From positions 7,628,001 to 7,692,000 of the forward strand of contig NC_087245.1 in assembly GCF_037042905.1 (NCBI RefSeq): a stretch of 64,000 bases of DNA. The letters are read 5' to 3'. The DNA is from Lytechinus pictus (taxonomy: Eukaryota). The position numbers and the translations under genes were made by a program. This document shows, piece after piece, positions 3,995-22,603 of the stretch. Each line of letters begins with the position of its first letter. Within the stretch, counting starts at the first letter, position 1. Under the pieces are notes generated by a model, which saw only the letters and a program-made list of their open reading frames with translations, was not told the DNA's origin and did no database searches.

Positions 3995-6900
3995 CAATGT
4001 TGCGCCCCTGGTCGAACATGAATTTGCATGGATCCCCTAAGTTCAAGGTCAATTTGGCGCCCTTGGTTGAACATGAATTTGGCGCCATGTAAAATATCAC
4101 TTTGCCCTCCCCCTTCTGAAACATGTATTTGTCGCCTTATGGTCAAACATCAAATTAGCGCTTCCCTAGTTCGAACATCAATTTGGCGCCCCGCTAGTTT
4201 GAACATCAATTCGGCGCTCCCCTAGTTCGAACATCAATTTGGCGCCCCGCCCAGTTCAAACATCAATTTGGTGCCCCCATCTAGTTCGAAAATTAATTCG
4301 CCCCCTCCCCCTTGTTCAAACATCATTTCGGCGCCCCATAGTTCGAACGTCATTTTGGCGCCGCCTAGTTCTAACATCAATTTGGCGCCCCAAGTTCGAA
4401 TAGCAATTCGGCGCCCCCTAGTTCGAACATCAATTTGGCGACCCTAGTTCGAACATTCAATCGGCGTCCCCCTACGTCGAACATCTATTTGGCCTTCCTA
4501 GTTCGAATATCAATTCGGCGCCCCCTAGTTCAAACATCAATGTGGTACCCCTAGTTCGAACATCGATTCGGCGCCCCCCCCTAATTCGAGTATCAATTCG
4601 GCGCCCCTACATGTAGGTCGATCATCAATTGATCATCAATTTGCCCCCCCCCCCCCCCCCGTTCGAACATCATTTTGGCATCCCTTCGAACTGAATTTGG
4701 CTTCCCTAGTACGAAAATCATTTCGCCCCCTAGCTCGAGTATCAATTTGGCGCCCCCCTAATTCAAGTATCAATTCGGCGCCCCTACATGTAGGTCGATC
4801 ATCAATTTGCCCCCCCCCCCCCGTTCGAACGTCAATTCGACCCCCAGTTCGAACATCATTTTGGCATCCCTTCGAACTGAATTTGGCTTCCCTAGTACGA
4901 AAATCATTTCGCCCCCTAGCTCGAGTATCAATTTGGCACCCCCCTAGTTCGAACATCAATTCGGCGCCCCCCTAGTTTGAGTATCAGTTTGGCGCCCCCC
5001 TAGCTCGAACATCGATTCGCCCCCTCCCCCCTAGTTCGAGTATCAATTTGGCGCCCCCAGTTCGAACATCATTTTAACATCCCTTCGAACATCATTTTGG
5101 CGCCCTCCTTGATCGAATATCAATTCGGCGCCCCTACATGTAGGTCCAACATCAATTTGGCGCCCCATAGTTCGAGTATCAATTTGGCGCCCCCTAGTTC
5201 CAACATCAATTCTGAGCCCCCCTAGTTCGAGTATCAATTTGGCGTCCCCCTAGTTCGAACATCGATTCGGCCCCCTCCCCCCTAGTTCGAGTATCAATTT
5301 GGCGCCCCCAGTTCGAACATCATTTTAACATCCCTTCGAACATCATTTCGGCGCCCTTCTAGTTCGAATATCAATTCGGCGCCCCTACATGTAGGTCCAA
5401 CATCAATTTGGCGCCCCATAGTTCGAGTATCAATTTGGCGCCCCCTAATTCCAACATCAATTCTGAGCCCCCCCCCCCTAGTTCGAGTATCAATTTGGCG
5501 TCCCCCTAGTTCGAACATCGATTCGGCCCCCTCCCTAGTTCGAGTATCAATTTGGCGCCCCCAGTTCGAACATCATTTTAACATCCCTTCGAACATCATT
5601 TCGGCGCCCTTCTAGTTCGAATATCAATTCGGCGCCCCCACATGTAGGTCCAACATCAATTTGGCGCCCCTAGTTCGAATATCATTTCGGCCCCCCTAGC
5701 TCGAGTATCAATTTGGCGCCCCCTAGTTCCAACATCAATTCTGAGCCCCCCTAGTTCGAGTATCAATTTGGCGTCCCCCTAGTTCCAACATCGATTCGGC
5801 CCCTCCCCCCTCCCCCTAGTTCGAGTATCAATCTGGTGCCCCCAGTTCGAACATCATTTTGACATTCATTCGAACATCATTTCGGCGCCCTTTTGGTTCG
5901 AACATCATTTTCTTTCCTCCTCTTCCTCTTTTTTTCTTCTCGTCCTTCCCCTCTTTCTCTCCCCTTTATTTCTTTTCTTTCCCCCCTTTCTCTCTCTTTT
6001 TTTTCTCTTCTTTCCTCCCTCTTCGAACATTCAATCGGCGTCCCCCTACGTCGAACATCTATTTGGCCTTCCTAGTTCGAATATCAATTCGGCGCCCCCT
6101 AGTTCAAACATCAATGTGGTACCCCTAGTTCGAACATCGATTCGGCGCCCCCCCTAATTCGAGTATCAATTCGGCGCCCCTACATGTAGGTCGATCATCA
6201 ATTTGCCCCCCCCCCCCGTTCGAACGTCAATTCGACCCCCAGTTCGAACATCATTTTGGCATCCCTTCGAACTGAATTTGGCTTCCCTAGTACGAAAATC
6301 ATTTCGCCCCCTAGCTCGAGTATCAATTTGGCGCCCCCCTAATTCGAGTATCAATTCGGCGCCCCTACATGTAGGTCGATCATCAATTTGCCCCCCCCCC
6401 CCCCCCCGTTCGAACGTCAATTCGACCCCCAGTTCGAACATCATTTTGGCATCCCTTCGAACTGAATTTGGCTTCCCTAGTACGAAAATAATTTCGCCCC
6501 CTAGCTCGAGTATCAATTTGGCGCCCCCCTAGTTCGAACATCAATTCGGCGCCCCCCTAGTTTGAGTATCAGTTTGGCGCCCCCCTAGCTCGAACATCGA
6601 TTCGCCCCCTCCCCCCTAGTTCGAGTATCAATTTGGCGCCCCCAGTTCGAACATCATTTTAACATCCCTTCGAACATCATTTTGGCGCCCTCCTTGATCG
6701 AATATCAATTCGGCGCCCCTACATGTAGGTCCAACATCAATTTGGCGCCCCATAGTTCGAGTATCAATTTGGCGCCCCCTAGTTCCAACATCAATTCTGA
6801 GCCCCCCTAGTTCGAGTATCAATTTGGCGTCCCCCTAGTTCGAACATCGATTCGGCCCCCTCCCCCCTAGTTCGAGTATCAATTTGGCGCCCCCAGTTCG

Positions 6901-7492
6901 AACATCATTTTAACATCCCTTCGAACATCATTTCGGCGCCCTTCTAGTTCGAATATCAATTCGGCGCCCCTACATGTAGGTCCAACATCAATTTGGCGCC
7001 CCATAGTTCGAGTATCAATTTGGCGCCCCCTAATTCCAACATCAATTCTGAGCCCCCCCCCCCTAGTTCGAGTATCAATTTGGCGTCCCCCTAGTTCGAA
7101 CATCGATTCGGCCCCCTCCCTAGTTCGAGTATCAATTTGGCGCCCCCAGTTCGAACATCATTTTAACATCCCTTCGAACATCATTTCGGCGCCCTTCTAG
7201 TTCGAATATCAATTCGGCGCCCCCACATGTAGGTCCAACATCAATTTGGCGCCCCTAGTTCGAATATCATTTCGGCCCCCCTAGCTCGAGTATCAATTTG
7301 GCGCCCCCTAGTTCCAACATCAATTCTGAGCCCCCCTAGTTCGAGTATCAATTTGGCGTCCTCCTAGTTCCAACATCGATTCGGCCCCTCCCCCCTCCCC
7401 CTAGTTCGAGTATCAATCTGGCGCCCCCAGTTCGAACATCATTTTGACATTCATTCGAACATCATTTCGGCGCCCTTTTGGTTCGAACATCA
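3995..7492. repeat. ~30-bp GC-rich satellite (ctagttcgaacatcaatttggcgcccc) with a ~1.58-kb higher-order duplication
   Basis: Monomer repeated throughout; block ~4448-6021 is repeated at ~6022-7607 (identical ORFs offset by 1585 nt). Confidence 0.95.
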
Positions 7493-8404
7493 TTTTCTTT
7501 CCTCCTCTTCCTCTTTTTTTCTTCTCGTCCTTCCCCTCTTTCTCTCCCCTTTATTTCTTTTCTTTCCCCCCTTTCTCTCTCTTTTTTTTCTCTTCTTTCC
7601 TCCCTCTTCCTCTCTCCTTTTTCTCCTTTTCTTTCCCCTCTTCCTCTTTTTTCTTCCCCCTCTCCCCCCTCCCTTTTCTTCTCTTCCTTTCCCCTTTTCT
7701 TCCCCCCTTCTCTCTCTTTTTTCTCTTCTTTCTTCCCTTTTCCTCTCTCTCCTTTTTCTCCTTTTCCTTTCCCCCTCTTCCTCTCTCTTCCCCCCTCTTC
7801 TTTTTTCTTCTTTTCTTTCCCCTCTCTTTTTTCTTCTCTTCTTTCCTCCCTCTTCCTCTCTCTCCCTTTTCTCCTTTTCTTTTCCCCTCTTCCTCTTTTT
7901 TATCCCCCTCTCCTTCCCCCTCCCTTTTCTTCTCTTCCTCTTTTTTCTCCTTTTCTCTCCTCTTTTTCCTCTCTCTCTTTTTCTTCTCTTCCTTTCCCCT
8001 CTTCCCCTCTCTCTCTTTTTTCTCCTTTTCCTTTCCCTCTCTTTTTCCTTCTCTTTCTTTCCCCTTTTCCTCTCCCTTTTCCTTCCCTTCCTTCCCCCTC
8101 TTCTCTTTTTCTTCTTTTTTTCCCCCCTTTCCTCTCTCTTTTTTCTCCTCTTCTTCCTTCCCCCTCTTCCTCTCTCTTTTCCTCTCTTTTTTTCCCCTTT
8201 CTCTCTCTTCTCTTCTTTCCTCCTTCTTCCTCTCTCTTTTTTTTCCTTTTCCTTTCCCCCTCTCCCTCTCTCCTTTCCTCTTTTCTTTCCCCCTTTTTCC
8301 TCTCTTTTTTCTTCCCTTCTTCCCCCTCTTCCTTTCTTCTTTTTCTTCTTTTCTTTCCCCTCTTCCCCCTTTTTTTCTCTTTCTTTCCCTCTCTTCTTTT
8401 TTTT
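7493..8404. repeat. Polypyrimidine/polypurine low-complexity tract
   Basis: About 910 nt almost entirely C/T on the plus strand. Confidence 0.97.
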
Positions 8405-8462
8405 AGCCGAAGGGGGGGGGGCCAAGGCCCCCTCGGCCCCCCCCCCCATGGATCCGCGCCTG

Positions 8463-8768
8463 GCACCACGAACCGCGTTTGGCAGTGGATTTCTAACTAG
8501 TGCCTTAGTGGGTCGCGCGTGCTGGGATCTCACTTCTTGGGTCCACAACACACGACTTCTATGGCTTGAATTTTCTTTGCGCGGCGGCATGTAATGAACC
8601 CTTGGGTGGCCATTGAGTTCCTGTACAGATCACCCAAGGGTTCATTACATGCCGCCGCGCACAGAAAAATCAAGCCATAGAAGTCGTGTGTTGTGGACCC
8701 AAGAAGTGAGATCTCAGCACGCGCGACCCACTAGTTAGAAATCCACTGCCAAACGCGGTTCGTGGTGC
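8463..8768. repeat. Long inverted repeat (~140-bp arms, 22-bp spacer)
   Basis: gcaccacgaaccgcgtttgg...aacccttgggtg / cacccaagggtt...ccaaacgcggttcgtggtgc; the right arm recurs at ~25023-25192. Confidence 0.9.
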
Positions 8769-9030: not shown

Positions 9031-9848
9031 ATAGACTAATACACATAAGCACTATTTCCCATAGACTTTACACATAGCAAATTGAGAGGATCTCAAATCC
9101 AATTTTGCAAGTGAAATACGGGCATGATCTGATTTTCTGATTGGAAAATGAAGACCACACTAGCGATAGCTTACAATCTCAGCTACAACATACTCCAAGC
9201 TCAGAGAAAACTGACAAAAAGAAATGGAGATATGGCTCGCGAAATAGAAGAATGTAAAATCCAGTTTTGAGAAAAAGTCATTTCCCATAGAGATTGCACA
9301 CAAAATGAGCGAAAATGACATGCCTCTATAATTTGCCATTTTTCAGGATGATTCATTCCTTTAAAAGAAAATATAGCAATCAAATTAAAAAGAGTACGTC
9401 CTCAGCTACAATATATTGAAAACTGAGCGAAAATTGGCCAATATTTGAGGAGTTAGTGTCAAATTTGCATAACTATGATGACGTCATAGGTAGCAAAGTG
9501 GTAATTTTGAGTTTCGACGCCACTTTGATGACGTCATGATAAAATTAAGGGTCAAATGTGACATGAAATCATATCTCCCATTTATACACTATTGGAATAT
9601 GAAAAAAAAATCGGGGGTCAATGGACTACCTGGAGAGCTATGATGAGTTTTGTATAGGCATGTTTTTGCACATATATTGTCTATGGTTAGTGCGCGCGCG
9701 CGTGCGTGCTGTAAACTTTGATGGAGGCTAATTCCTTTATTACTTGTCGTAGAAGGTTGATCAAGGTATTAAATTACTCAGAATTATATAATCAATGCAT
9801 TGATATTAAAAAAATGCCGATACAATGTTGTATAGTGCCGTTTGACAG

Positions 9849-10274
9849 TGTTGTTCGAGTGCTCAGTTCGAACAATCTTAAAAGTGGAAATGTACTGCAC
9901 AAAAGACGAAATACATGCATCACATATATTCAGTCAAAAGTATATTGACTCACCGTAAGTTCTGTCCCACGATGAATCCAGTAGAACAACTGAACTGGTA
10001 GAAAACAGCAATATAACTCAGCAATAACAACAGTATAACTTCTCAATAGGTTGGTTCCAGTACATCTCTCAGCAGTATCCAAAGATGGCGATGCCGTCCG
10101 CATCCTCTATCACGGGGTGTCGAATCCCTGCTTCTGATTGGTCACCTCTGGTGAAGTTGCACGCGGCACTACATCTTGGCTTGCCATGAGGTCTCCAGCA
10201 GCAGACGACGATGGTAGCAGACGACAAGGATCAGTAGCTGAAAACGCCAAATCGGCCTGGCCGTTTTCACTACA
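9849..10274 (-). repeat. 3' LTR of the Gypsy element
   Basis: tgttgttcgagtgc...ttttcactaca; matches 21618-22043 with no differences found by eye. Confidence 0.97.
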
Positions 10275-10295
10275 CTGCTCCCTTCCCAATTTTTT
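10275..10295 (-). other. Polypurine tract
   Basis: Minus strand AAAAAATTGGGAAGGGAGCAG directly before the 3' LTR start TGTAGTG. Confidence 0.85.
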
Positions 10296-12272
10296 GAGGA
10301 TCGATACGGGGATCTCTGAAGAAGCACTCAAACTCTGGATGAGCAAGACCGTTGGAACCCGAAAGAAAGTGCCTCGGCCATGGCTACACCCATGAGGAAT
10401 GCCAACAACCCCTATCTGAACCTAGCCAAAACACAACAATCAGTAGTTCTGTTAACCACCTTCGGAAACTGCTCACTCGGCACCCCCGCTTGGACATTGG
10501 GTCCTCACTAGAGCTTCCGCAGAGCACAGGGTATCCATGACTCAACGGGATAAGAGCAAGGCTCCATTATCTAGACCGGAGTCATAGGCGAACCAAACCT
10601 AGTATTCACTTCCCATAAACTTCCTAAGGGCTGCAAATTATGCCATGCCAGCCCACTGGGTAAACCACTAACCCAGTGCTTGGATACAAATCCTACTCAC
10701 TCTAACTCTTCGACAACATCCTGAACTATCTAGAGCAAGAATCTGAGCTATGCAAAACGCACTACATCCGACGGCAATAAGTCGCGAACATCCACCTGTA
10801 TAAAATATACAACAGGGACGGCGCTCGTGTTCCAGATATTCTCGAAGAATTATCCCAGAAGAGGAGAATTCTCCATCTTCATGGCAAGTAATTACTGGCA
10901 AGTGGAACCGTAAGTTCCAGGCTTACACACTTCATTCTAGCATGATCGGACACAATCCGAGACTAGTCACTAAAAGAAACTCTTTCCATAGAGAAGCCCA
11001 GCCTACAACAAGCTCAGAGCAATGCTATTGACAATCCAGTACTGCACCACCAAAGCAGGGTTATCAGCATGTGGCAACTGCAATGCTCGGAGATCATTAT
11101 GGAAAATTCTGAGTATCCATCTCGCCCTGGAAAGAACATCCTTTGTAAACCCATCTCGAACATGTTCATGGTACGGCTGCACAATCCAGCTGCCGACCAT
11201 ACCTCAAGAAGTATTCTCCTTAACTGTCGTGGCGTTGGCAAAGAAGAATTCTTCTTGCCAGCCACTGCCACAGTAAGAGAAGACGGAAGCGAAACATGAA
11301 ATATAACACCCGGTGCCTCAGGGTATATACTTAAATCACTTCACGATCATCCACTTCTGACACAGTATCTAGTGAGGGCATATAGCTACTTAAAGCCAGC
11401 ACAGCTCAAAAACTAGAACACTACGTTATCCAGGTCAGCTAACACAGCTAACATCTGAATAGCACACAGAAGGATGCATCTCATCTTATAAGCACACCAT
11501 CAGGAAACATTATAAGCTTCATGCAAGCTACTCAGCATCACACCATAAGTCAGGCAAGAACATTCTCCCTACCCTACTCCTTGGAATGCCAGTCCTAAAG
11601 GCGAGCGAGGATAAGTTCTCTGCCCCTTCCTTAGTGGACTACTTGGCTCCACATTGAACACAGGATGGAAATGGGTTCCTTGCCTCACCCATTGGTGTTG
11701 CGAGGCTGGCACTACTAGACGACCGAAGGAATATCTCCAGTAATCTTTAACATGTTTCACATGATGGCATACCATTCAGTTACAGAGCGGGACATGAGGA
11801 ATAATAGGGAAATACATAGCTAACACAGCTGACAACACAGTAACATATATCTCAGAGTCCTAAAATCTGCCATGGACCAAGATACTCCGTTTGCCTAATT
11901 TCCATTTACCTTATCCTCACTACCCGTTCCGCTCTCCCACAACTACCAGTCCTGGAGAGAGGTGACGGACACAGGCCCAGTCAATTCTCCCCAGTAACCT
12001 TGCGGGTGGTCACTTACCTTGTCCTCTCGCAGGCGGTTGATTGTTGGGTCTGACTCAGGAGGCGAGGATTGTAGCTGGGTCCCAACTTCCTCCATCCCCA
12101 GTGAAGATAGTCCCTGAGCTATTACTTCCGCACTGTGAGCCTGGCCCAATACCTCATAATCTTCCAGAAGGAAAAACCTATCCGTCGATTTGAGGACATC
12201 CGCCTGTAGCTGACAAAACCCAGACCTTCTAGCTCTGAAATGCAAAGCAGAAGTCAAACACACCGAAGAGAG

Positions 12273-12524
12273 CATCTTTTGGTCGATGGTGCCTGTGATG
12301 CGTTTCAGCACATTTGCCGAAAGGGTGGTTATGAGCGACATCTTCTGGTCAATAACGCCAGTGATCCGCTTCAGCAAGTTGGCCGAAACCGTGGTCACAG
12401 TCATCCTCTGACCAATGATACCTGTGACATGTCTTAGCATATTTGCCCAAACGATGGTCACACTTTCCTTCTGATCGATCAATCCTGTGATCCGTTTCAG
12501 CACGCTTGCCTGAACGGTAGTCAC
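12273..12524 (-). repeat. Four tandem 60-66-bp units homologous to pol segment 16219-16275
   Basis: Units translate VTTVQASVLKRITGLIDQKES / VTIVWANMLRHVTGIIGQRMT / VTTVSANLLKRITGVIDQKMSL / ITTLSANVLKRITGTIDQKM; pol reads TTIPPNTLKRVTGVIDQRM. Confidence 0.85.
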
Positions 12525-12616
12525 AATTTCCTTCTGTCTTATCTCCCAGACCCCATAAATAATATACCAAGACCCACATGTCCATTAGAGGTTCTTGAGA
12601 AAAGGAGTGGATTTCC

Positions 12617-14608
12617 CTAGGTCCTAGATGCGCATCCCGGACAATGGTACTCTTCATCCAACCCCAGCATCTCGCCTTCCTCTTCGGACATTCCCACGCA
12701 CTGACCGTGGAACCATTCTTCGCATTTATCACACTGGATCATAAATTTTCCTCCCCAGGGCTTCCTGCAAAGGCAATACACCTCCTCGTGCCTGTGCTTC
12801 TTCCCTTTCTTATTCGGAGGAATAGTCCGATCTCTGCATGGTTTCATGCGGTCATGGTTCACCGTCATCCTAACATTCTTATACTCGACCCGGTACAGGA
12901 ATGGAGACAGTCTCTCCACAATCAATGCAGGACCTTTCCAGGGAGGGCAAAGTTTCTTGCACTTCCCTTTGGATTGAGCAGTGTCCAACAAGTATACTCG
13001 TTCACCTACCTCATACTTCCTCTGGAACACTTTCATGTCATAGTCCTTTTTCTGTCTTTTTTGGGTCTCTTTTAGATGAGACCTGGCCAGCGAGTGTACA
13101 TCGGCTAATGTCTTACGCAGATTCGCACAGTACTCCTCGCTTTCTACTGGTTGTGCTGCTTGCGGCATCGGGAACAGTAAGTCCACCGGTTGGGTCACTT
13201 CCCTTCCAAGCATTAGCCGGTTGGGAGTAAATCCGGTGCTTCTATTCACTGTTGATCGTATGGCTCCTGCGATTTGAGGAACAAACTCGTCCCAACTTCG
13301 CTGGTTCTTGCCTACGAAACAACGCACTGCATCCATCAGCGTCCGGTTAAATCGCTCCACCTGACCATTGGCCGAAGGACGATAAGCCGTTGTTCTCGCC
13401 TTATGTATTTGCAACATCTTACACATGCTTGTAAACAAACGACTCTCGAAATTACGGCCTTGGTCGGTGAAGACCTGCAGGGGACACCCGAAACGGCTGA
13501 AGAAATGGTCCACCGCTGCTCGGGCTGTCACTTCTGCGGTCTGTGAAGGCAAAGGTATGCACTCCACCCATTTCGTGAATTGATCAACCATTACCAGGAT
13601 ATTCTCGTTCCCATTCGCCGTTTTTGGCAGGGGACCCAAGAAATCCAAGTGCACCCTTTCCATGGGGTAGCCAGCATGATAGCTGATCATAGGGTTCCTC
13701 CCGTGTCTGGCAGACTTCTTGCATTGGTTACAGGTTGGACATTTGCGGATAAAGTCACTCACATCCTTCCCCATACCATACCAGAAGAACCGCCTCTTCA
13801 TCTTGGAGATCACCCTTACATTGCCAGCATGCCCTGCCAAGGGCAAATCATGGTTAAGTCTAACCAATTCTTCCCTCATAGAGTGAGGAATGAGAAGTAA
13901 ATCCCCTTCGCCCTTGTTCTGGTAAATTACCCCATTTTCCAGGTGAAATGTATCCTTGTTGATCCACAGGTTCTTCTGCTCGGGACTCCATAACATCATA
14001 GTTCCCTCGCTAGGTTCTTCACCTGTGGCCAACCATTCCCGTAATGGAAGAAATTCTGGATCTTTGTCTTGTTCTTCTTTCAATCTCACGGCTGGGGGTG
14101 TTTCTGGCTCCTCGACCACCTGGGAGATATTCAGTTCCTCTGTGATCGGTCTGGAGCTCTCAACTACCTCGTCCGACCGTAAATCCGATCTCACGGCCGG
14201 GGGTGTTTCTGGCTCTTCGACCGCCTGGGAGATATTCTGTTCCTCGGCGATCAGCCTTGAGCTCTCAACTACCTCTTCCGACCGTAGATCAGGGTCCGAT
14301 TTCACCACCATGTGGGTTGTCCAAAACCCTGACTCAAGGTTTTGGCCAATGGTGTTTTTCCGTTCTCCTTTGACTGATGCCAAGGGAACTACGTCATCCA
14401 CCTCTTCTACAAAAGGAGCCCAGTTCCGGTGAGCCTTCTCACAGTAGGGGCACCCACCACAAGGAAGATCTTCTAACTTGAATCCTAGCCGGAATTCCTC
14501 GCAGAAAAGCTCAGTGTCAGGAACTCGAGACAATGCGTACTCCGCATTCCCATGCTGTTTCCCCGGGCGGTGTATCACCTTCATCTGATACTGACTTAGT
14601 TCTTCCAA
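12617..14608 (-). CDS. pol: Pol 3' part: end of RNase H, integrase (HHCC, DDE, WKGP motif) and C-terminal PHD finger; separated from the 5' part by a 1-nt frameshift
   Basis: HDLPLAGHAG...CPTC zinc-binding motif; VHLDFLGP, FTDQGRNFES and NGQVERFNRTL catalytic core; C-terminal C4HC3 pattern YCLC..MIQCDKCEEWFHGQC..CPGC. Confidence 0.96.
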   Translation of the reverse strand: MEELSQYQMKVIHRPGKQHGNAEYALSRVPDTELFCEEFRLGFKLEDLPCGGCPYCEKAHRNWAPFVEEVDDVVPLASVKGERKNTIGQNLESGFWTTHMVVKSDPDLRSEEVVESSRLIAEEQNISQAVEEPETPPAVRSDLRSDEVVESSRPITEELNISQVVEEPETPPAVRLKEEQDKDPEFLPLREWLATGEEPSEGTMMLWSPEQKNLWINKDTFHLENGVIYQNKGEGDLLLIPHSMREELVRLNHDLPLAGHAGNVRVISKMKRRFFWYGMGKDVSDFIRKCPTCNQCKKSARHGRNPMISYHAGYPMERVHLDFLGPLPKTANGNENILVMVDQFTKWVECIPLPSQTAEVTARAAVDHFFSRFGCPLQVFTDQGRNFESRLFTSMCKMLQIHKARTTAYRPSANGQVERFNRTLMDAVRCFVGKNQRSWDEFVPQIAGAIRSTVNRSTGFTPNRLMLGREVTQPVDLLFPMPQAAQPVESEEYCANLRKTLADVHSLARSHLKETQKRQKKDYDMKVFQRKYEVGERVYLLDTAQSKGKCKKLCPPWKGPALIVERLSPFLYRVEYKNVRMTVNHDRMKPCRDRTIPPNKKGKKHRHEEVYCLCRKPWGGKFMIQCDKCEEWFHGQCVGMSEEEGEMLGLDEEYHCPGCASRT

Positions 14609-16854
14609 CCATCGGCTATTTGCCCTTGAGGATGTTTGAAGTTCATCAGCCAGATGAGACTACTGTGATCTGTGCGCACCAAAAACGAGTTACCTAAAAG
14701 GTAGTGGCGGTACTGCCGTGTGAACTTCACCACTGCTAGGAGTTCTCTCCTTGTCACACAGTACCTTCTCTGTTCGGGAGACAGTGATATGCTTCCGTAG
14801 GCCACTACTCTCTCTTGTCCATCCTGAACCTGGAGTAACTCCGCACCGATAGCCTCATTCGAAGCATCGGTGTCCAGGATGAATGGATCCTGCAAGTTGG
14901 GCATGGTCAACACTGGGGCTGAGGTAAGCAGCTCCTTTATAGAGTCAAACGCCTCCTGTTGTTCAGGTCCCCAGCAGAACATGTTTTTCCCAGTGATCTT
15001 GTACAGAGGAACAGCCGCCGCTGCATAATTCTTGATGAAGGTCCTGTGATAGTTCACTAACCCCAAGAATCTCTCCACTTGTTTCGTGTTGCGCGGCGCT
15101 GGCCAATTCCTCACTGCTTCAATCTGATCTGGTTTCAGAGAGATCTTGTTTTCTCCTACATTCCGGCCCAGGAACTCTACCTCGCGCCGGAACAATTCAC
15201 ACTTCTTTGGTTTCAGCTTCAACTTGAAGCTTCTAAACCTTTGTAAGACCTCCTTCAAGTTATTCATGTGATCCTCAAAAGACTTTCCCAGAACTACTAC
15301 ATCATCGAGGAATGCTAGGACTATGTCCCAATTCAAACCTCTTAAGATTAAGTCCATGGCTCGTGAGAAAGTCGCGGGAGCGTTGCACAATCCAAAACCC
15401 ATCCTCACAAATTCGTACAATCCGTACTTTGTGGTGAAAGCAGTCTTCTTGCGATCCTCTTCCGCTATTTGGACTTGCCAATACGCAGAGTTCGCATCCA
15501 GCTTGGAAAACCAACGCGTCCCGGAAAGGGTATCCAGACACTCCTCGATATTCGGGAGGGGATACACATCTTTCTGAGTGATCTGATTTAGTCCTCGGTA
15601 ATCTACACACCAGCGGACTCCCCCATCTCTCTTCCGTACCAGTACAGGTGCAGACGCCCACTCCGATTGTGAAGGCTGAATAACCCCAGCCTCCTTCATT
15701 CGTTTCAGCACTGCCTTTTCTTCTTCTGCGAAACGCATCGGCGTTCTTCGCATCTTGTGCTTTACTGGGGCTGACGTACCTGTCTCTATCTTGTGCTCAA
15801 TAGCTGTAAATTCTCCTAAGTCGAAGTCGTGACGGGCAAACGCGTCTCCGAACTCCCCCAGGATACGCCTAAGTTCAGCTTCCTGTTCAGAGTTCAAGAG
15901 TTCCGAAGATCGGTCATACAAATCCTGTAAATGTTCTGGCACCTCTTCCGCCACGTCCTCTGTTAAGCAGTTGACTTTAGGTTCCAGCTCTTGAGGCGCC
16001 GAATGTGACCTGGTTTCCTCATCTCTTTCTGGAAGAGAAGATGGCACCTGAGCCACAGCCACTGCCTCGAAGACCCGGCCTATTATCTTGTTGCCCTCCA
16101 GATGGACTACTCTGTCGGTTGGGTTCAAAACATACAGTTGAATGAGCGTACCTCCGTCATGTAGCGACCTAGGTGCTAGAGCGGGTAATACGGATGATGG
16201 CTCAAAAACACAAGCGTTCATCCTCTGGTCTATTACCCCGGTGACACGCTTCAGTGTGTTGGGTGGGATGGTGGTCCGGTGTGAGGTGCTAACTCTGGCT
16301 ACTCGTCCACCATTCCGACCAACTCCGAACTTCATGGGTATCCGTTCATCCCCCATAAGCAGCTCCTTACTACTTATAAGGATATCGATTGAATGCTGCT
16401 CAAGAAAATCTAGACCCAACAGCATGTCATCCGCTATCGATGCTGTGTAAATGTTACCGGGAAAACACTTTCTTCCAATTCCTACCTCCACTGGGCCGAT
16501 CACTGCTCCTTGCAAGCGTGTATCTCGGCCAGCGGTGCTTAAAACAACTTCCTTCACCAGGGGCGGGGCAGGGTCAAGTAGTTTCATCACTCGATCCGAG
16601 ATAATGGTCACTTCTGCAGCAGAATCTACCACTGCGTCAAGTGTAACGCCATTCACCTTTACCTCTACTCTCAGCATCGAGGACGAACGAAGTTGACAGA
16701 CCACTACCTCCTGCGGAGATTCCAACTCCGGTTCTTCCCATTGGGTAGGGAGGACGTTGCTCTCTTCTTCACCAGCTGATAATTCTACCTCTGAGGAATG
16801 CGGATCCTCGTCTTCCAGTTCCAGTTGGTTTACATATTCCGCTAACACCTTCAT
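14596..16854 (-). CDS. pol: Pol 5' part: aspartic protease, reverse transcriptase, RNase H
   Basis: AVVDSAAEVT protease motif; RWCVDYRGLN, FSKLDANSAYWQV, MGFGLCNAPATF and AFLDDVVV RT motifs; LDTDAS and RRELLAVV RNase H motifs; lies in the -1 frame relative to gag. Confidence 0.97.
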   Translation of the reverse strand: MKVLAEYVNQLELEDEDPHSSEVELSAGEEESNVLPTQWEEPELESPQEVVVCQLRSSSMLRVEVKVNGVTLDAVVDSAAEVTIISDRVMKLLDPAPPLVKEVVLSTAGRDTRLQGAVIGPVEVGIGRKCFPGNIYTASIADDMLLGLDFLEQHSIDILISSKELLMGDERIPMKFGVGRNGGRVARVSTSHRTTIPPNTLKRVTGVIDQRMNACVFEPSSVLPALAPRSLHDGGTLIQLYVLNPTDRVVHLEGNKIIGRVFEAVAVAQVPSSLPERDEETRSHSAPQELEPKVNCLTEDVAEEVPEHLQDLYDRSSELLNSEQEAELRRILGEFGDAFARHDFDLGEFTAIEHKIETGTSAPVKHKMRRTPMRFAEEEKAVLKRMKEAGVIQPSQSEWASAPVLVRKRDGGVRWCVDYRGLNQITQKDVYPLPNIEECLDTLSGTRWFSKLDANSAYWQVQIAEEDRKKTAFTTKYGLYEFVRMGFGLCNAPATFSRAMDLILRGLNWDIVLAFLDDVVVLGKSFEDHMNNLKEVLQRFRSFKLKLKPKKCELFRREVEFLGRNVGENKISLKPDQIEAVRNWPAPRNTKQVERFLGLVNYHRTFIKNYAAAAVPLYKITGKNMFCWGPEQQEAFDSIKELLTSAPVLTMPNLQDPFILDTDASNEAIGAELLQVQDGQERVVAYGSISLSPEQRRYCVTRRELLAVVKFTRQYRHYLLGNSFLVRTDHSSLIWLMNFKHPQGQIADGWKN

Positions 16855-16907
16855 AAACTCTGGAAGACCGGCTACACCTTCCTCAGGTTTGTCTGTAGTT
16901 GGGTGAC

Positions 16908-19115
16908 CTATTGTTGCTCGAGCCAGGGTGTGGCCTCCCTCTCCTCCTCTGACTCGCTCGAGTTTGACGCCTCCTCTTCCCTGAGGACCGAAGCGGAAGC
17001 CACGGGGCTTTTATCGGGACAATCTCTCCTAAAATGTCCCGGCTTACCACACTTGAAACAGCCCTCAGTCCTGGGTGCAGGGGATGGCGATCTCCCTCGT
17101 CTTCCTATTTGTGACATTCTTCTATTAAGATTATCCATGGAGGACTGCAGTTTCTCGAACTTCTCATCCCAATCGGAAACCCTCTCCTCTAAAGCCCGCG
17201 TGCGATTATCCAACGCTGACACCAACTTGGTCAAGCTTTCACCCTCTGAAGATATCTTACTCGAAGTGCCAGGCACTGAGCTGTTCTTCTCCAGCCGGGG
17301 TTTATTAGCTGGCGGGGGGGCACCAATCTGTTGGATCACTGCCTCTTCAGATGACCAAGCATCTTGTGGCCAATGGACTATCTTGACCTCTGGTCTCCTC
17401 TGCCTGCCATACACAACCTTTTTCGAATGTATATACCAAGTCACATGATCCACAGCCTTCTCAACTGAGTCCGGCCGTAAGTTCAGGGCGTGCAAACCAG
17501 CTTCCCGTTCAGAACACCCCTGACAAAACTTCAATACCCCTTGTCTCTGTACTTGAGACTCCGGAACCCCTGGGAAAGTTTTAACAGCCAGGCTGACCAC
17601 ACGGTCAGCCCACTCCATGATTCCTTCCTCAGCCAGCTGGTGCGCCCGCATGAACTCCATTTGAGCTACCTCTAGAGGATCATCCGCGCCAAACCGGCGC
17701 TCCATCCTCCTCACCAGATCTTCAAAAGACATGTCTCTGTCACGCGACATCAGTAATGAGAAATAGTCACTTCCAATACCTTTCATGCACCACCACATCT
17801 GATATTTCCTTTGAATGGAGGACCAGCCCTGCTCATCCGCATAGGCCATGAACTTGAGGTAAAACCCTCTCCAGCTCCCTCGACCATCATAGTTAATGGT
17901 CTTGGGGAGCGAACCCATGTGACTCAATGACTGTGAACCCATTTGCCTGGAGCGGCCAGTAGTCTTGTGTGTAGAGATATTCCCCGAAGACTGGCTAGTG
18001 GTGGGGCTCTGGGGTAGCTGATGTGTTGCGGCCTGGTGCGACTGGAACGCCCTTGACTGTGGTGGTGCCGGCTGGCAAGCTGTTGTTTGGACTTGCATCT
18101 GATTAGTCTGTGCATGTCGAGATGATGGGACTTGTGATACCGGCGTTGTTGTCATCTGATAGGATCCAACCGCTGCCGGTTGCACTGGCGGTGCCGCCTG
18201 CGGCTGCGGCAGTGGAGCCGCTGGTATCTGTGGCGGCGCCTGTGGCGGTACCTGTGACGTTGCGGGCGCCTGTGCGCACCTCAGCGGTACACGCGTATAC
18301 CATACAGTAGGCATGCGCGGCACTGGGGCCGCTGTTACTCTTGGCGGAGGGCCAGCCGATAACTGCGGCGGTGGACCCACTGGGTCTACAAGAGGTTGGG
18401 TCGTCGCACTTTGTGGTGATTCTGTCGCTAACAGCTGGGCCGGTGGAACCAATGGGGCTCGTGGTGTTGCCGGCACTGTGGGTGGGCCAGATAGCCGCCT
18501 GACTGAAACATCATACTCCGACAAGTTGGGACCTGGTCTGGTCTGATGTAAGATCTGATGGGGTTCTTGGCCCCCAGTGCCTGGTTGTGAAGTTGGAGCT
18601 TGCACCCTTTCCAGCTGGGCTGGGCGTAAGACCTGCTGTGAGGGATTAACTTGCAACCCCTCCTGTAAAACTCTACCACCAAAGCCTGGGTGGGACTCTG
18701 ACTGCCACCACCTCTCGGATACTCCTGGAGGGGGCGGATACCTCTGCCACCGATAAAATGCTGGGCTAACCTCCTGCACCGGGCTGGGTGCATGGGAATA
18801 CTGAAACAACTCTCCATCCGCTCCTATAGGTTCACCCATGATACCTCTATCATGATCCAGCAACCCTTGTGCAAGCCCATTAGACTGTTGTGATGCCGTA
18901 CTAAAGGGCGTGAAGTCAAGCTGATCCAAAACCTCTTCCGGCAATGAAACCAATGACGAGAAATAATCCCTTGTGATACCACCTTTACGTTCCAACAGCA
19001 AGCCTGCCACAGCATGACTTACTCCTGGAATGCCCACGAGTTCGTCATATGAACACTCGTTCACCGGAAGTGGGCCTTCAATAACCTCAAAAGGGCTTAC
19101 TATATCTGACAACAT
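16908..19115 (-). CDS. gag: Gag, 735 aa: N-terminal HhH-like motif, Pro/Gln-rich linker, capsid-like domain, coiled coil, CCHC zinc knuckle
   Basis: Intact ORF; CFKCGKPGHFRRDC knuckle; YDGRGSWRGFYLKF...QGWS gag core motif. Confidence 0.93.
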   Translation of the reverse strand: MLSDIVSPFEVIEGPLPVNECSYDELVGIPGVSHAVAGLLLERKGGITRDYFSSLVSLPEEVLDQLDFTPFSTASQQSNGLAQGLLDHDRGIMGEPIGADGELFQYSHAPSPVQEVSPAFYRWQRYPPPPGVSERWWQSESHPGFGGRVLQEGLQVNPSQQVLRPAQLERVQAPTSQPGTGGQEPHQILHQTRPGPNLSEYDVSVRRLSGPPTVPATPRAPLVPPAQLLATESPQSATTQPLVDPVGPPPQLSAGPPPRVTAAPVPRMPTVWYTRVPLRCAQAPATSQVPPQAPPQIPAAPLPQPQAAPPVQPAAVGSYQMTTTPVSQVPSSRHAQTNQMQVQTTACQPAPPQSRAFQSHQAATHQLPQSPTTSQSSGNISTHKTTGRSRQMGSQSLSHMGSLPKTINYDGRGSWRGFYLKFMAYADEQGWSSIQRKYQMWWCMKGIGSDYFSLLMSRDRDMSFEDLVRRMERRFGADDPLEVAQMEFMRAHQLAEEGIMEWADRVVSLAVKTFPGVPESQVQRQGVLKFCQGCSEREAGLHALNLRPDSVEKAVDHVTWYIHSKKVVYGRQRRPEVKIVHWPQDAWSSEEAVIQQIGAPPPANKPRLEKNSSVPGTSSKISSEGESLTKLVSALDNRTRALEERVSDWDEKFEKLQSSMDNLNRRMSQIGRRGRSPSPAPRTEGCFKCGKPGHFRRDCPDKSPVASASVLREEEASNSSESEEEREATPWLEQQ

Positions 19116-19424
19116 GATGTATCAATTAAAAATAACAACTTTCCAAAACACAAAATTACCTTAAAACCCAATTGGGTAACACCCCACTCCCCGTCAAACA
19201 AAAAGGCGAACCACCGGGGTAAGAAAAAACCCTAAAGACAAAAATCAGCACCTGCAAAGAAAAATATACCAACGCTTAGTCGGCCTAAAATAACAAGTAC
19301 CAACTCTTCGGTGGTCTAAGAAAAAAAACGAAGTCCAAACACAGCAATGTCACCACCTAAGGTAAAAGTACACCCGCAAGCGCACGAACACTCCAAAATT
19401 CCCAAAATATATAACAAGTAGCCC

Positions 19425-20175
19425 GGGAAAGGCGTCCGTTTAATAGCAGGAACAAAACAAAAAACCGGGCCCTAAATGCAGGAAAAACTAATCTGAAAAG
19501 GGTATCCCTTTAATTTCCCCCAGCACCGGAATTAATTTCTCAATGAAGAAAAATAATCCAAAAAGGCGTCCCTTGAATCCTCAGAAAACACAAAAAGTGA
19601 CCCCAAAATGTAACAAAAATTAATCAAGGAAAGATGCCCCTTTAATCCTGAAAGAACACAAGAATTAATCTCTAAATCCAGAAAAAATAATCCAGGAAAG
19701 GTGTCCCTTTAAGCTTAGAAAACCCAGAATTAATCGCTAAATGCATAAAAAATAATTCAGGAAAGGTGTCCCTTTAAGTTTAAAAAACACAAGGATTAAT
19801 TTCTAAATGTAGAAAAAATAATTCAGGAAAGGTGTCCCTTTAAGTTTAGAAGACCCCCGAACTAATATCTAGATGTAGAAAAAACAATTCGAGAAAGGTG
19901 TCCCTTTAACTTCAGAAGACCCCCGAATTAATATCTAGATGTAGAAAAAACAATTCGAGAAAGGTGTCCCTTTAACTTCAGAAGACCCCCGAATTAATAT
20001 CTAGATGTAGAAAAAACAATTCGAGAAAGGTGTCCCTTTAACTTCAGAAGACCCCCGAATTAATATCTAGATGTAGAAAAAACAATTCGAGAAAGGTGTC
20101 CCTTTAACTTCAGAAGACCGACGAATTGATTTTTAAATGTAGAAAAAATAATTCTAAAAGGGTACTCCTTTAATT
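19425..20175. repeat. Tandem array, ~65-66-bp unit, about 11 copies, in the Gypsy 5' leader
   Basis: gagaaaggtgtccctttaacttcagaagac recurs at 19891, 19957, 20023 and 20089; more diverged copies lie to the left. Confidence 0.9.
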
Positions 20176-20384
20176 CAAACACCAAAGTCAAATGCTAGAT
20201 TCTGAAGAAGAATTCAAGATCACGTAAAGGACCCTAGCCCGGTAAGCTAGGAAAGTGTGCATCAAAAGTCCAAGTCAAGAAGGTAACAGAACCTTGTAGC
20301 TCTAATTGTAGTCCAAATGTAAACACACCAGAAAAATAAATACTAACACCTATCCTTAGTCTAAAAGAATATAACAACAACAGG

Positions 20385-20835
20385 GGGACTAAGACGGGAG
20401 ACTTATCCCTTTAATCCAAAATTAATCCTTATAACAGTCACAAATAATCCGAAAATAACTAGACTAAACGGGGAGACTTATCCCTTTAATCTAGAAATAT
20501 TTTTGGAAAGAACCAAAAAATATTGTATACAGCTAAACTCAACAGGGAGACTTATCCCTTTAATCTAGAAATATTTTTGTAAAGAGCCAAAAAATATTTT
20601 ATACAGTTAAACTGAACAGGGGGACTTATCCCTTTAATCTAGAAATATTTTTGCAAGAAGCTGAAAAATATTTTATCACAGCTAAACTAAAGAGGGAGAC
20701 TTATCCCTTTAATCCAGAAATATTTTTGTAAAGAGCCAAAAAATATTGTATACAGCTAGACCAAACAGGGAGACTTATCCCTTTAATCTAGAAATATTTT
20801 TGTAAAAAGCTGAAAAATATTTTATCACAGCTAAG
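20385..20835. repeat. Tandem array, ~74-75-bp unit, about 6 copies, in the Gypsy 5' leader
   Basis: gacttatccctttaat at 20400, 20475, 20549, 20623, 20698 and 20772. Confidence 0.9.
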
Positions 20836-21601
20836 TAACGCCAATTTTTTAGAAATAAATTAGACGAATGAGACTGAGCGTAAAGTCTACCCCTGTTCGT
20901 ACAAACAAAACGTTAAATCAAATATAAAATAAATCAAAAACTAGCCTAGAATCTGTACTGTAGCACAGCCCAACCAGGAACTGCAACTACACCGTCACTC
21001 TGACAGATCGATGCAGGCGCCAGACACACTCTCACTGCTAGATCTATGCAAACGCTATCGGTTCGACGACAGGCACACTCTCACTGTTCGGGTCGGTCAA
21101 AACGAAACGATATTGCTAGACGCCCTAGGTCACAACGAAACGATATTGCTAGACGCCTTAAACGATACCCACACTCTACACGGCAGATCGTAAGCTCCGT
21201 GCCCAATGTGACCGCCGCGATACCAAAACGATATCCAACGTCAACGGAAAATCCCCAAAACGCACGTGGAGAAATATTCACCTCGAGATGGTTGCGAGGG
21301 AGCGCGATAGATAATTGAACAACTTGAGCAAGTTCAATCACCACTCGAAAAGTTTGCAAATCACTAAAACGTGAATCTAAATAACACACAACACAAGCTC
21401 AGCACCCTGCAAAATATCACAAGCTCAGCCCTGGAAAGTTGACAGTCCCACTGTCACCCTCTCCCCCGCCAACGCAAGCAAATTTCACCCCGCACTGACA
21501 CCTGTGCGATAGACACAATAAATCACTGCTGACCGCCACCGAGCAAGCAGCGGGCAGCTATAGGCCTAGCAGTCACCACGACTCCGCAAACGCGATTCGC
21601 A

Positions 21602-21616
21602 CTGCTGACTACGCCA
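21602..21616 (-). other. Primer binding site, tRNA-Ser type
   Basis: Minus strand TGGCGTAGTCAGCAG starts 1 nt after the 5' LTR; plus strand ctgctgactacgcca matches the 3' end of eukaryotic tRNA-Ser (..CTGCYGACTACG-CCA). Confidence 0.85.
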
Positions 21617-21617
21617 A

Positions 21618-22043
21618 TGTTGTTCGAGTGCTCAGTTCGAACAATCTTAAAAGTGGAAATGTACTGCACAAAAGACGAAATACATGCATCACATATATTC
21701 AGTCAAAAGTATATTGACTCACCGTAAGTTCTGTCCCACGATGAATCCAGTAGAACAACTGAACTGGTAGAAAACAGCAATATAACTCAGCAATAACAAC
21801 AGTATAACTTCTCAATAGGTTGGTTCCAGTACATCTCTCAGCAGTATCCAAAGATGGCGATGCCGTCCGCATCCTCTATCACGGGGTGTCGAATCCCTGC
21901 TTCTGATTGGTCACCTCTGGTGAAGTTGCACGCGGCACTACATCTTGGCTTGCCATGAGGTCTCCAGCAGCAGACGACGATGGTAGCAGACGACAAGGAT
22001 CAGTAGCTGAAAACGCCAAATCGGCCTGGCCGTTTTCACTACA
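21618..22043 (-). repeat. 5' LTR of the Gypsy element
   Basis: Direct repeat of 9849-10274; minus strand contains a CCAAT box (gaccaatcag) and a GCCATCTT YY1-like motif. Confidence 0.97.
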
Positions 22044-22603
22044 ACAGATTGACAGATCACCAGATCACCTAATAAATAAATAAAAAAGAAAATTCGTACG
22101 AAATTAATAGTTGATCTGTCGATTGACAGATCACCTAATAATAAATAAATAAAAAAGAAAATTCGTACGAAATTAATAGTTGATCTGTCGATTGACAGAT
22201 CACCTAATGATGTAATTTTAATTGTAATAATTACTGAGACAATAATATTAATGAGATATCAATAATAATCATTATAATAATAATACTTATAATTAAAATA
22301 TAATTGTAGAAATAATTATAATTATAGTAATTATAATTATAGGCCTTATAATTATTGAGACAATAATAACTATTATAACAATAATAATAATAATTATAAA
22401 ATAATTATAATGATAACAATTATAATGAAAGTAATTGTAATTGTAATAATTACTGAGACAGTAATATTGATAAGTCATCAATAATGATTATTATTATAAA
22501 AATTGTTACAATTATTATTATAAATATAATCATAATTATAATTGAGGGCCTTATAATTATTGAGACAATAATAATTATCATTTCAATAATAATTATTATG
22601 AAA

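Follow-up and report, generated by a model that had tools for sequence, protein, structure and literature searches.

An integrase-terminal PHD finger of the putative H3K4me3-reading class in a clade of gypsy retrotransposons of marine invertebrates

Analysis of a 64,000-nucleotide stretch of the Lytechinus pictus genome (hereafter the window) revealed that the integrase of a Ty3/gypsy LTR retrotransposon terminates in a genuine C4HC3 PHD finger, and that this finger is an integral and conserved part of pol across a clade of gypsy elements of marine invertebrates. Its sequence, predicted fold and cage residues support its assignment to the H3K4me3-reading subclass of PHD fingers. As judged from sequence, modelling and analogy, the integrase PHD of this clade probably helps to choose the insertion site. 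The initial annotation had proposed that the lineage may tether integration to active or promoter chromatin through a captured histone reader; taken as a whole, this interpretation is partly supported.

The element occupies positions 9849-22043 of the window on the minus strand, with gag followed by pol (PR-RT-RNaseH-IN), and is a very recent insertion, whose two LTRs (426 bp each, TG..CA ends) show 0 mismatches. TG..CA LTRs, a short target-site duplication (TSD), a primer-binding site and a polypurine tract, i.e. the characters of Metaviridae, were all found, and the Pfam domains follow the order gag(CCHC), PR, RT, RNase H, H2C2, rve, PHD. The CCHC zinc knuckle of gag (Pfam zf-CCHC) lies at 17016-17063 and, according to the coordinates, the gag ORF and pol overlap, with pol in the -1 frame. 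We infer from its sequence that the purine run 10275..10295 acts as the polypurine tract. The surroundings of this copy are simple repeats on both sides. The following features were distinguished:

9845..9848, no strand: target-site duplication, 4 bp, copy at the 3' LTR; the same 4 bases at both element ends
9849..10274, minus strand: 3' LTR, 426 bp; TG..CA ends, identical to the 5' LTR
10275..10295, minus strand: putative polypurine tract adjoining the 3' LTR; purine-rich run read from the sequence
11369..12524, minus strand: about 1.16 kb in place of the 3.8-kb ORF3 of sister copies; no alignment to the ORF3 region of copies C7 and C17
12632..12778, minus strand: PHD finger C4HC3, spanning the Tyr ahead of Cys1 through the final Cys; Pfam PF00628, PDB matches, AF2/Foldseek
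12779..12835, minus strand: basic linker from barrel to PHD; pLDDT about 50, mean pairwise identity 0.28
12836..13000, minus strand: integrase C-terminal beta-barrel, GPY/F-type, with WKGP; five strands (AF2), weak Integrase_p58_C match
13376..13666, minus strand: integrase catalytic core (rve); Pfam PF00665, E=6.2e-13
13715..13891, minus strand: integrase zinc-binding domain (H2C2); Pfam PF17921, E=5.9e-18
14596..14659, minus strand: overlap of two pol frames; two ORFs here versus one in C7 and C17
14617..16668, minus strand: protease, reverse transcriptase and RNase H of pol; Pfam gag-asp_proteas, RVT_1 (E=8.5e-33), RT_RNaseH_2 (E=3.3e-31)
16908..19121, minus strand: gag ORF; ORF list, Pfam zf-CCHC
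19529..20834, minus strand: 5' untranslated region, in which 66-bp and 74-bp units form two tandem arrays; Tandem Repeats Finder, repeat search
21598..21616, minus strand: primer-binding site, beginning with TGG one base past the 5' LTR; read from the sequence
21618..22043, minus strand: 5' LTR, 426 bp; identical to the 3' LTR
22044..22047, no strand: second copy of the target-site duplication, 4 bp; matches 9845..9848

Integrase and PHD are encoded by the minus-strand open frame 12617..14659 (680 aa from stop to stop), in which Pfam located Integrase_H2C2 at residues 257-315, rve at 332-428, Integrase_p58_C at 576-607 (a weak match) and PHD (PF00628) at 629-676. The PHD match reached 35.2 bits (E=1.2e-8) against a curated cut-off of 24; both profiles named as a check in the initial annotation, PHD and rve, were recovered. 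That annotation had quoted a full C4HC3 finger at the end of the integrase ORF; the peptide is exact, being followed by four residues and the stop codon, and the interval given for it (12620-12790) correctly encloses the finger itself. Its attribution of the integrase to Ty3/gypsy was borne out by the Pfam domains and the LTR element anatomy, and the location of the finger after the WKGP barrel and a basic linker by Pfam, the AF2 model and the alignment. All 8 zinc ligands (Cys4-His-Cys3, canonically spaced) are present in the window copy and are unchanged in 64 of the 64 aligned sequences.

The cage positions of the window finger are occupied by Tyr, Trp, Met and Trp, with Asp after Cys3; these include the Tyr before Cys1, the Met before Cys3 and the Trp before the His that had been pointed out as an aromatic cage. 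In phmmer searches of PDB chains, the finger matched DIDO1 (2.2e-18), PHF2 (1.9e-15) and BPTF (8.5e-14), as well as PHF8, KDM7A, Pps, CFP1 and Spp1, and the best matches are all H3K4me3 readers, of which PHF2/PHF8, BPTF and CFP1/Spp1 were among the relatives first suggested. In the AF2 model (pLDDT 86.9; 82-95 in the blocks over the finger) the barrel and the PHD are joined by a low-confidence linker (pLDDT about 50), and the finger has the interleaved two-zinc PHD fold with a small beta-sheet. The top Foldseek matches were the fingers of DIDO, PPS, BPTF and PHF2, several of them bound to H3K4me3, the best being 4l7x (rmsd 1.1 A over 51 columns, 57% identity). Overall, the fingers of DIDO1, PHF2/PHF8/KDM7A, BPTF, Pps and CFP1/Spp1 are 41-57% identical to the present one over about 50-58 columns, superpose on the model with an rmsd of 1.0-2.0 A, and share with it the Cys-x-Cys start, the cage residues and the Arg2-binding Asp. 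In contrast to these cellular domains, which reside in regulators of transcription and chromatin, the present finger forms the tail of a retroelement integrase. In DIDO1 and TAF3 the Met lines the back of the K4me3 cage, a position taken by Tyr23 in BPTF, and the variable fourth cage position is His in DIDO1 and Asp in TAF3 (PMC8246079). Asp27 of BPTF holds Arg2 of H3 (PMC8166343), and the Asp after Cys3 matches, by its place in the sequence, this Arg2-binding acid of H3K4me3 readers. A complex prediction of the PHD with residues 1-36 of H3 (from the genome's own H3 gene), made with the lysine lacking its trimethyl group, gave a score of 0.24 with the mark at 0.34, and counts neither way.

Comparison with related elements revealed that the finger is conserved far beyond the window copy. 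PF00628 was present in 116 of the 120 best pol relatives listed, i.e. the PHD is kept and has not decayed in other copies, and the full zinc-ligand pattern was found in 112 of the same 120. In these 112 complete fingers among the best 120 relatives, Met at Cys3-3 and Trp at His-2 are invariant (112/112 each) and the residue before Cys1 is Tyr or Phe in 109, while the fourth cage position is occupied by Asp (56), Trp (21) or Tyr (20). Since this position varies, affinity or methyl-state preference may differ between families. Asp after Cys3 was observed in 58 of the 64 aligned sequences, and the barrel residues W21, G23 and P24 are invariant in the alignment. The mean pairwise identity of the PHD (0.55) is close to that of the whole pol (0.52); the two domains flanking the linker (barrel and PHD) reach 0.55-0.57, and the linker only 0.28. 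The finger ends intact pol frames of 1385-2165 aa at many loci, in families that are only 51-59% identical. The recurrence of the finger at an identical position in numerous diverged copies and families, together with the DIDO1 match (E=2.2e-18), excludes a chance origin. In a quick tree of pol, covering the families of the Lytechinus pictus genome and database relatives, the elements with PHD formed one clade (SH-aLRT 100) with one loss, whose hosts are echinoderms and molluscs. A protein-representative search returned retroelement tails mixed with cellular PHD proteins, and its counts are rough.

The window copy is a defective derivative, with one break in the pol frame and ORF3 gone. The break lies at about position 14613, whereas in the sister copies C7 and C17 pol is a single ORF of 1463 aa; at position 14613 the contigs of all four sequencing runs differ from the window by one letter in length. 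These contigs demonstrate the presence of related copies of the element and have no bearing on transcription. With its pol broken, the window copy itself yields no full pol, and it was presumably mobilised by proteins of intact sister copies. All three ORFs are open in two copies of the family. Seven young copies have perfect TSDs and in five of the seven the LTR pairs are identical, which shows that the family was recently active. One young copy is nested in another retroelement.

The third ORF of the intact sister copies (3.8 kb) encodes a TatD-type DNase (PF01026) at residues 1000-1263 (E=4.7e-30, 105.2 bits against a cut-off of 27), and across the clade the PHD is almost always paired with this TatD ORF3. 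Neither a TatD domain nor ORF3 was detected in the window copy. ORF 11943..12584, considered as a third gene, was rejected: it stands where the sister copies have the real ORF3, gave no match in a Pfam scan and holds four degenerate copies of a repeated peptide unit similar to part of pol. No description of a TatD ORF3 in LTR retrotransposons was found in the literature searched, and a survey of metazoan env-carrying gypsy elements (PMC13524379) mentions neither 'PHD' nor 'TatD'; a third gene with a zinc knuckle and a TatD-type nuclease thus appears to be undescribed for LTR retrotransposons.

The integrase-PHD of Lytechinus pictus belongs to an already published class, the PHD-bearing retrotransposons (Kapitonov & Jurka 2003; de Mendoza 2019; Grau-Bové 2022; Craig 2022), which includes Gypsy Gag-Pol and PHD-plus-integrase architectures. 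PHD fingers occur in CR1 non-LTR elements (Kapitonov & Jurka 2003), in REM1 and Gypsy-7a_cRei of Chlamydomonas (Perez-Alegre 2005; Craig et al. 2022), in Chlamys PLEs and, as PYGO-like fingers, in cnidarian elements (Grau-Bové et al. 2022). In all of these, as here, the finger lies inside the element's own polyprotein, and chromatin reading or guidance of insertion has already been proposed by their authors; these papers contain no binding or targeting data for a PHD. The present clade differs in its animal hosts (echinoderms and molluscs) and in its coupling to the TatD ORF3. Furthermore, the finger of Gypsy-7a_cRei is not at the integrase C-terminus, according to the order RH, PHD, INT in a figure legend, and those of the cnidarian elements are PYGO-type, whereas the present one is terminal and DIDO/PHF2/PHF8/BPTF-like. 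No description or test of this animal clade was found in the literature searched, which covered Grau-Bové et al. 2022 in its main text; the main text of PMC5890265 does not contain the term 'PHD'.

The classic example of a retroelement that reads histone marks is the guidance of integration into heterochromatin by a chromodomain. In chromoviruses such as MAGGY and Tf1, which are Ty3/gypsy elements, the integrase ends in a chromodomain (Gao et al. 2008, via PMC6673714 and 10.1101/2021.11.30.470311), and the initial annotation rightly placed the PHD at the corresponding site, i.e. behind the GPY/F-type barrel and a linker that is basic and little conserved. Chromoviruses and the present clade thus both have a histone-mark reader behind a GPY/F-type integrase module, with tethering of integration as its presumed use. 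When the elements are compared by C-terminal domain, the reader of the present clade is a PHD of the H3K4me3 class, and the integrase ORF gave no chromo-family match (Pfam, E<=0.01), its terminal domain being the PHD. The mark read would be an active one, in contrast to the heterochromatic H3K9me of chromoviruses.

We give about even chances to the proposal, drawn from sequence, modelling and analogy, that IN-PHD binds H3K4me2/3 and biases integration to H3K4me3-marked chromatin. Cleavage of pol would deliver an IN-PHD protein to the pre-integration complex, where the finger would bind N-terminal tails of H3 that bear K4me2/3. The intasome would thereby be held on H3K4me2/3 nucleosomes, and integration would be biased towards H3K4me3-marked (active, promoter-proximal) chromatin, as the mirror image of the chromodomain-H3K9me tethering of chromoviruses. 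A natural likeness is offered by RAG2, whose H3K4me3-reading PHD guides and stimulates RAG1, a DDE-type enzyme of transposon origin, although RAG2 is a separate protein of a domesticated DNA-transposon system that involves no reverse transcription. An engineered parallel is the fusion of a PHD to the integrase-binding part of LEDGF, with which HIV-1 integration within 2.5 kb of TSSs was 50.3% versus 3.8% (PMC4176367). In these LEDGF(IBD)-PHD fusions a PHD linked to the integrase complex redirects integration to TSSs, which is the mechanism proposed here; they are engineered and act via a host cofactor, whereas the present one occurs in nature, with the PHD in cis.

The 14 flanks of the seven young copies, a tiny sample, carried no promoter-like signal and resembled ordinary AT-rich intergenic DNA (GC 0.37 and CpG o/e 0.77, versus 0.36 and 0.71 elsewhere in the window). 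A Pfam scan of 92 of the 102 flank ORFs, leaving out 10 window ORFs in the simple-repeat stretches 7849-8629 and 22046-22654, gave one match only, from another retrotransposon, and no gene-like signal. A sample of this size, compared by base composition and ORF content, neither supports nor refutes targeting.

It is also conceivable, if rather unlikely, that the PHD binds the H3 tail and serves a step other than site choice: holding on to chromatin (in mitosis or at nuclear entry), allosteric stimulation of catalysis, or an influence on how the new copy is packaged in chromatin or transcribed. Such a role would draw on the same sequence and fold evidence for H3-tail reading, agrees with the lack of a promoter-like signature in the flanks of the seven young copies, and has a precedent in RAG2, in which H3K4me3 binding by the PHD stimulates RAG catalysis besides localising RAG. 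Against it, tethering by a reader domain suffices to redirect a retroviral-type integrase (PMC4176367), so that some site bias is expected whenever the finger binds chromatin.

We consider it improbable that the finger reads another ligand, such as H3K4me0/me2, another histone region or a non-histone H3-like N-terminus (of a host factor or of ORF3). The PHF2 finger also binds the H3-mimic N-terminus of VRK1 (PDB 7m10; PMC8166343), and 7m10 was among both the sequence and the Foldseek matches to the present finger. At the fourth cage position, half of the clade has Asp in place of an aromatic side chain, and the nearly constant pairing of PHD with TatD ORF3 makes a partner within the element conceivable. 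However, TAF3, a K4me3 reader, likewise has Asp at this variable position (PMC8246079), the nearest solved relatives of the finger are all K4me3 readers, and three features of H3K4me3 effectors are conserved, namely the cage, an acid for binding Arg2 and the fold pairing with a free N-terminus (PMC8166343). The idea of a functionless passenger or artefact (with the ORF extended by chance, the assembly chimeric or a host exon read through), which could appeal to the broken pol and missing ORF3 of the window copy, is extremely improbable and for practical purposes refuted by the intact pol frames that end in the same finger at many loci and in diverged families, by the PHD ending pol in 116 of the best 120 database relatives with cage Met and Trp invariant, and by a conservation of the PHD equal to that of the enzymatic parts.

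Returning to site choice by IN-PHD, a naturally occurring fusion of integrase with a PHD of the H3K4me3 class would represent the active-chromatin counterpart of the chromodomain case; active-chromatin targeting by a PHD has so far been demonstrated only with engineered HIV cofactors. Linked to the PHD pol is an accessory gene, the TatD ORF3, which is not described for LTR retrotransposons in the literature searched. The family is young (identical LTRs, seven copies, two with three open ORFs) and its host is a laboratory-model sea urchin, and thus the question of whether the PHD steers insertion is directly testable. Tentatively, we suggest that this widespread and still active gypsy clade of marine invertebrates might possess a two-part kit, consisting of an H3K4me3-reading integrase PHD, which would make its members the first natural animal retroelements known to aim at active-chromatin marks by a reader in cis, and the zinc-knuckle/TatD third gene, and that both may cooperate at integration or cDNA processing.

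The integrase frame of the element does end in a PHD finger, and this observation of the initial annotation is thereby confirmed. The peptide quoted there is present letter for letter and closes the frame, being followed by four residues and a stop codon, and the Pfam scan of the integrase ORF matched both rve and PHD (PF00628, E=1.2e-8, 35.2 bits, the curated cut-off being 24). The frame belongs to a whole LTR retrotransposon with the following features.

9849-22043, minus strand: whole LTR retrotransposon, 12,195 bp
Both ends of the element: LTRs of 426 bp each with TG..CA ends (0 mismatches between the two by sequence comparison) and a 4-bp target-site duplication
One base after the 5' LTR: TGG-initiated primer-binding site
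19529-20177 and 20459-20834: pair of 5' untranslated tandem arrays, of 66-bp units x 9.8 and 74-bp units x 5.1
16908..19121, minus strand: gag frame containing a CCHC knuckle; relative to it, pol lies in the -1 frame
14596..17010, minus strand: upstream pol frame (Pfam: aspartic protease, RVT_1, RNase H)
12617..14659, minus strand: integrase frame (Pfam: Integrase_H2C2, rve, weak Integrase_p58_C, PHD)
Preceding the 3' LTR: purine tract
L030:478-4278 (stretch of contig C7 with a sister copy), minus strand: ORF3, 1267 aa, of the sister copy; its place in the window is taken by 11369-12524

The DNA around the element has a GC content of about 35% and is rich in repeats. To its left (window 4000-8600) the DNA is GC-rich and of low complexity, and its strands are strongly biased for purines or pyrimidines, which accounts for the long spurious ORFs found there in all frames; to its right (22070-22600) are AT-rich minisatellites, including an exact 69-bp duplication. 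Within pol, at roughly 14400-14500 in the window, an alignment of the clade (A1) revealed that a cluster of Cys residues (consensus DLPCGGC..C) is conserved in the interval from RNase H to H2C2; the scan matched it to no Pfam family.

When the LTR was used as a query against the 812-Mb host genome, 18 matches were obtained, and seven of the elements that these delimit have paired LTRs at least 97% identical to those of the window. All seven are bordered by perfect 4-bp target duplications, of a different sequence in each case. The two LTRs are identical in five copies, while a one-base difference separates them in a sixth and a small indel in the seventh; the family has therefore moved very recently. 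The length of both 5' untranslated arrays differs among copies. Only the copies on contigs C7 and C17 are complete (about 14.8 kb each), carrying gag, an unbroken pol of 1463 aa with the same terminal PHD, and ORF3. Two features mark the window copy as a derivative. A break at about 14613, a position at which the contigs from all four sequencing runs (4/4) differ from the window by one letter in length, divides its pol into two frames, and about 1.16 kb of other sequence (11369-12524) stands in place of the 3.8-kb ORF3 region. This replacing stretch includes an ORF (11943..12584, minus strand) without a Pfam match, which encodes four degenerate repeats of a unit of about 14 residues that resembles the element's own pol segment between protease and RT.

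The remaining copies are less complete: the one on C8 has no integrase, while those on C5, C3 and C16 have only LTRs and ends in common with the window element, their interior being only about 82% similar. An older copy (93% identity) has a stop codon within the finger. Within the family the finger is thus preserved in every copy whose pol is intact, and disappears only together with larger deletions or general decay.

More distant relatives were found in the same genome, where 27 further matches at 51–59% identity extend through the finger (26 of the 27 continue at least to query residue 256, and many lie within open pol frames of 1385–2165 aa); matches at 44% identity or less end before it. 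The C-termini at eleven diverged loci show the finger; six non-PHD families finish shortly after the integrase barrel. A search with the last 284 residues of pol against a collection of 5.8 billion proteins returned 780 matches, the best 120 of which were examined. PF00628 was present in 116 of these 120 and the complete zinc-ligand pattern in 112; a median of 5 residues comes after the final Cys, which puts the finger at the very end of the relatives as well. Mean pairwise identities in an alignment of 64 sequences were 0.55 for the finger (0.46 without zinc ligands), 0.57 for the barrel, 0.52 for the whole pol and 0.28 for the linker between barrel and finger. The finger, being conserved to the same degree as the barrel and the whole pol, genuinely belongs to the integrase.

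When 31 pol proteins were placed in a quick maximum-likelihood tree (midpoint root), all 24 PHD-bearing rows fell into one clade with a long stem (SH-aLRT 100), within which one secondary PHD loss was observed. Among the matches listed, sea urchin proteins come closest of those with a name, and named relatives occur in echinoderms (Lytechinus, Diadema, Acanthaster) and molluscs (Ostrea, Pinctada, Haliotis, Nucella, Gigantopelta); the majority of the remainder are environmental contigs. According to precomputed Pfam annotation, two pol relatives carry extra domains: Tpt1/KptA RNA 2'-phosphotransferase (P0098) and HHH_3 (P0065).

The initial annotation had also assigned the finger to the H3K4me3-reader type. 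Its best solved relatives by sequence are DIDO1 (E=2.2e-18), PHF2 (1.9e-15), PHF8, KDM7A and BPTF (8.5e-14), followed by Drosophila Pps, CFP1 and Spp1. The AlphaFold2 model of the last 127 residues (mean pLDDT 86.9) comprises a barrel of five strands and the finger, joined by a linker of low confidence, and a Foldseek search of the PDB with this predicted model listed, in this order, the fingers of DIDO, PPS, BPTF and PHF2, several of them H3K4me3 co-crystals (top match 4l7x: 57% identity over 51 columns, rmsd 1.1 A). Fingers of the K4me3 type require a free H3 N-terminus, an Arg2 groove (BPTF Asp27) and a cage (PMC8166343). The four cage positions, which hold H3K4me3 in solved relatives, are Tyr, Trp, Met and Trp in the window finger, and Asp follows Cys3, as in 58 of 64 relatives. 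Throughout the 112 complete fingers the cage Met (three before Cys3) and Trp (two before His) are invariant, and Tyr/Phe precedes Cys1 in 109; the fourth position is variable (Asp 56, Trp 21, Tyr 20). In K4me3-reading PHDs a conserved Met backs the cage (DIDO1 M35, TAF3 M882; Tyr23 in BPTF), and the equivalent variable position is His in DIDO1 and Asp in TAF3 (PMC8246079). Because solved relatives, predicted fold, cage residues and the Asp after Cys3 agree, assignment to the H3K4me3-reader type is well supported by homology, although the ligand may be other than H3K4me3.

This part of the earlier claim stands, while the tethering attached to it is plausible only. As the likeliest reading, the IN-PHD would tether the intasome to H3K4me2/3 nucleosomes and so bias integration towards active or promoter chromatin, the natural analogue being chromodomain-directed integration (Gao et al. 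2008, as cited). Exchange of the chromatin-binding part of LEDGF/p75 for a PHD finger placed HIV-1 integration within 2.5 kb of TSSs in 50.3% versus 3.8% of events (PMC4176367), a precedent which shows that a PHD tether can suffice to redirect integration. Alternatively, the PHD may serve chromatin retention or catalytic activation and not site choice. The small sample of 14 flanks from the seven young copies has a GC content of 0.37 and a CpG o/e of 0.77 (0.36 and 0.71 in the rest of the window), and only 1 of 92 flank ORFs scanned gave a Pfam match. This ORF (L044:1274-3271, right flank of the C8 copy) is the gag-pol of a different LTR element, with PNMA-like gag, protease and RT, in which the C8 copy is nested.

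De Mendoza et al. 2019 (PMC6673714) cite earlier reports of PHDs, in CR1 elements by Kapitonov & Jurka (2003) and in Chlamydomonas REM1 by Perez-Alegre (2005), and describe such domains as widespread among retrotransposons and able to read histone tails. A preprint by Grau-Bové et al. counts 823 chromatin-TE gene models across 172 genomes; it notes that PHD and Chromo frequently accompany the domains of reverse transcriptase and integrase, and that some retrotransposons of cnidarians have a PHD of the PYGO-like, H3K4me-reading kind. In Chlamydomonas, Gypsy-7a_cRei has a Gag-Pol listed with a PHD between RNase H and integrase, and it inserts into intergenic DNA 2.6 times more often than expected; PHDs are also recorded in Chlamys PLEs, Rehavkus transposons and one Ginger1 transposase. 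A literature search combining PHD with integrase, gypsy, LTR retrotransposon, H3K4me3 or target site found no description or test of the present animal clade.

ORF3 lies outside the PHD finding as given, because the window copy is without it. It begins with a long N-terminal stretch of low complexity, has one C2H2-like knuckle (also present in its database relatives) and carries a complete DNase domain of the TatD-related kind (PF01026, E=4.7e-30, residues 1000-1263). A TatD match is found 0.5–3 kb downstream, on the same strand, at 22 of the 27 diverged PHD-integrase matches and likewise in both complete copies; it also follows the PHD-integrase match in 9/11 metagenome contigs that extend 2.5 kb or more past that match. 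In one database gene model the frame continues from within the finger directly into the TatD protein, and another, from Acanthaster, combines TatD, rve and PHD. The proteins related to ORF3 are labelled "uncharacterized" in Diadema and Strongylocentrotus; of the named cellular proteins, Octopus TATDN2 is nearest (30% identity). A literature search on TatD with LTR retrotransposon, gypsy, reverse transcriptase or integrase yielded only unrelated papers, none describing TatD in LTR retrotransposons. The PHD by itself is of modest novelty, its combination with TatD of more. Though missing from the window copy, the TatD ORF3 belongs to, and defines, the PHD-integrase clade, and this unexpected extra is noteworthy in its own right.
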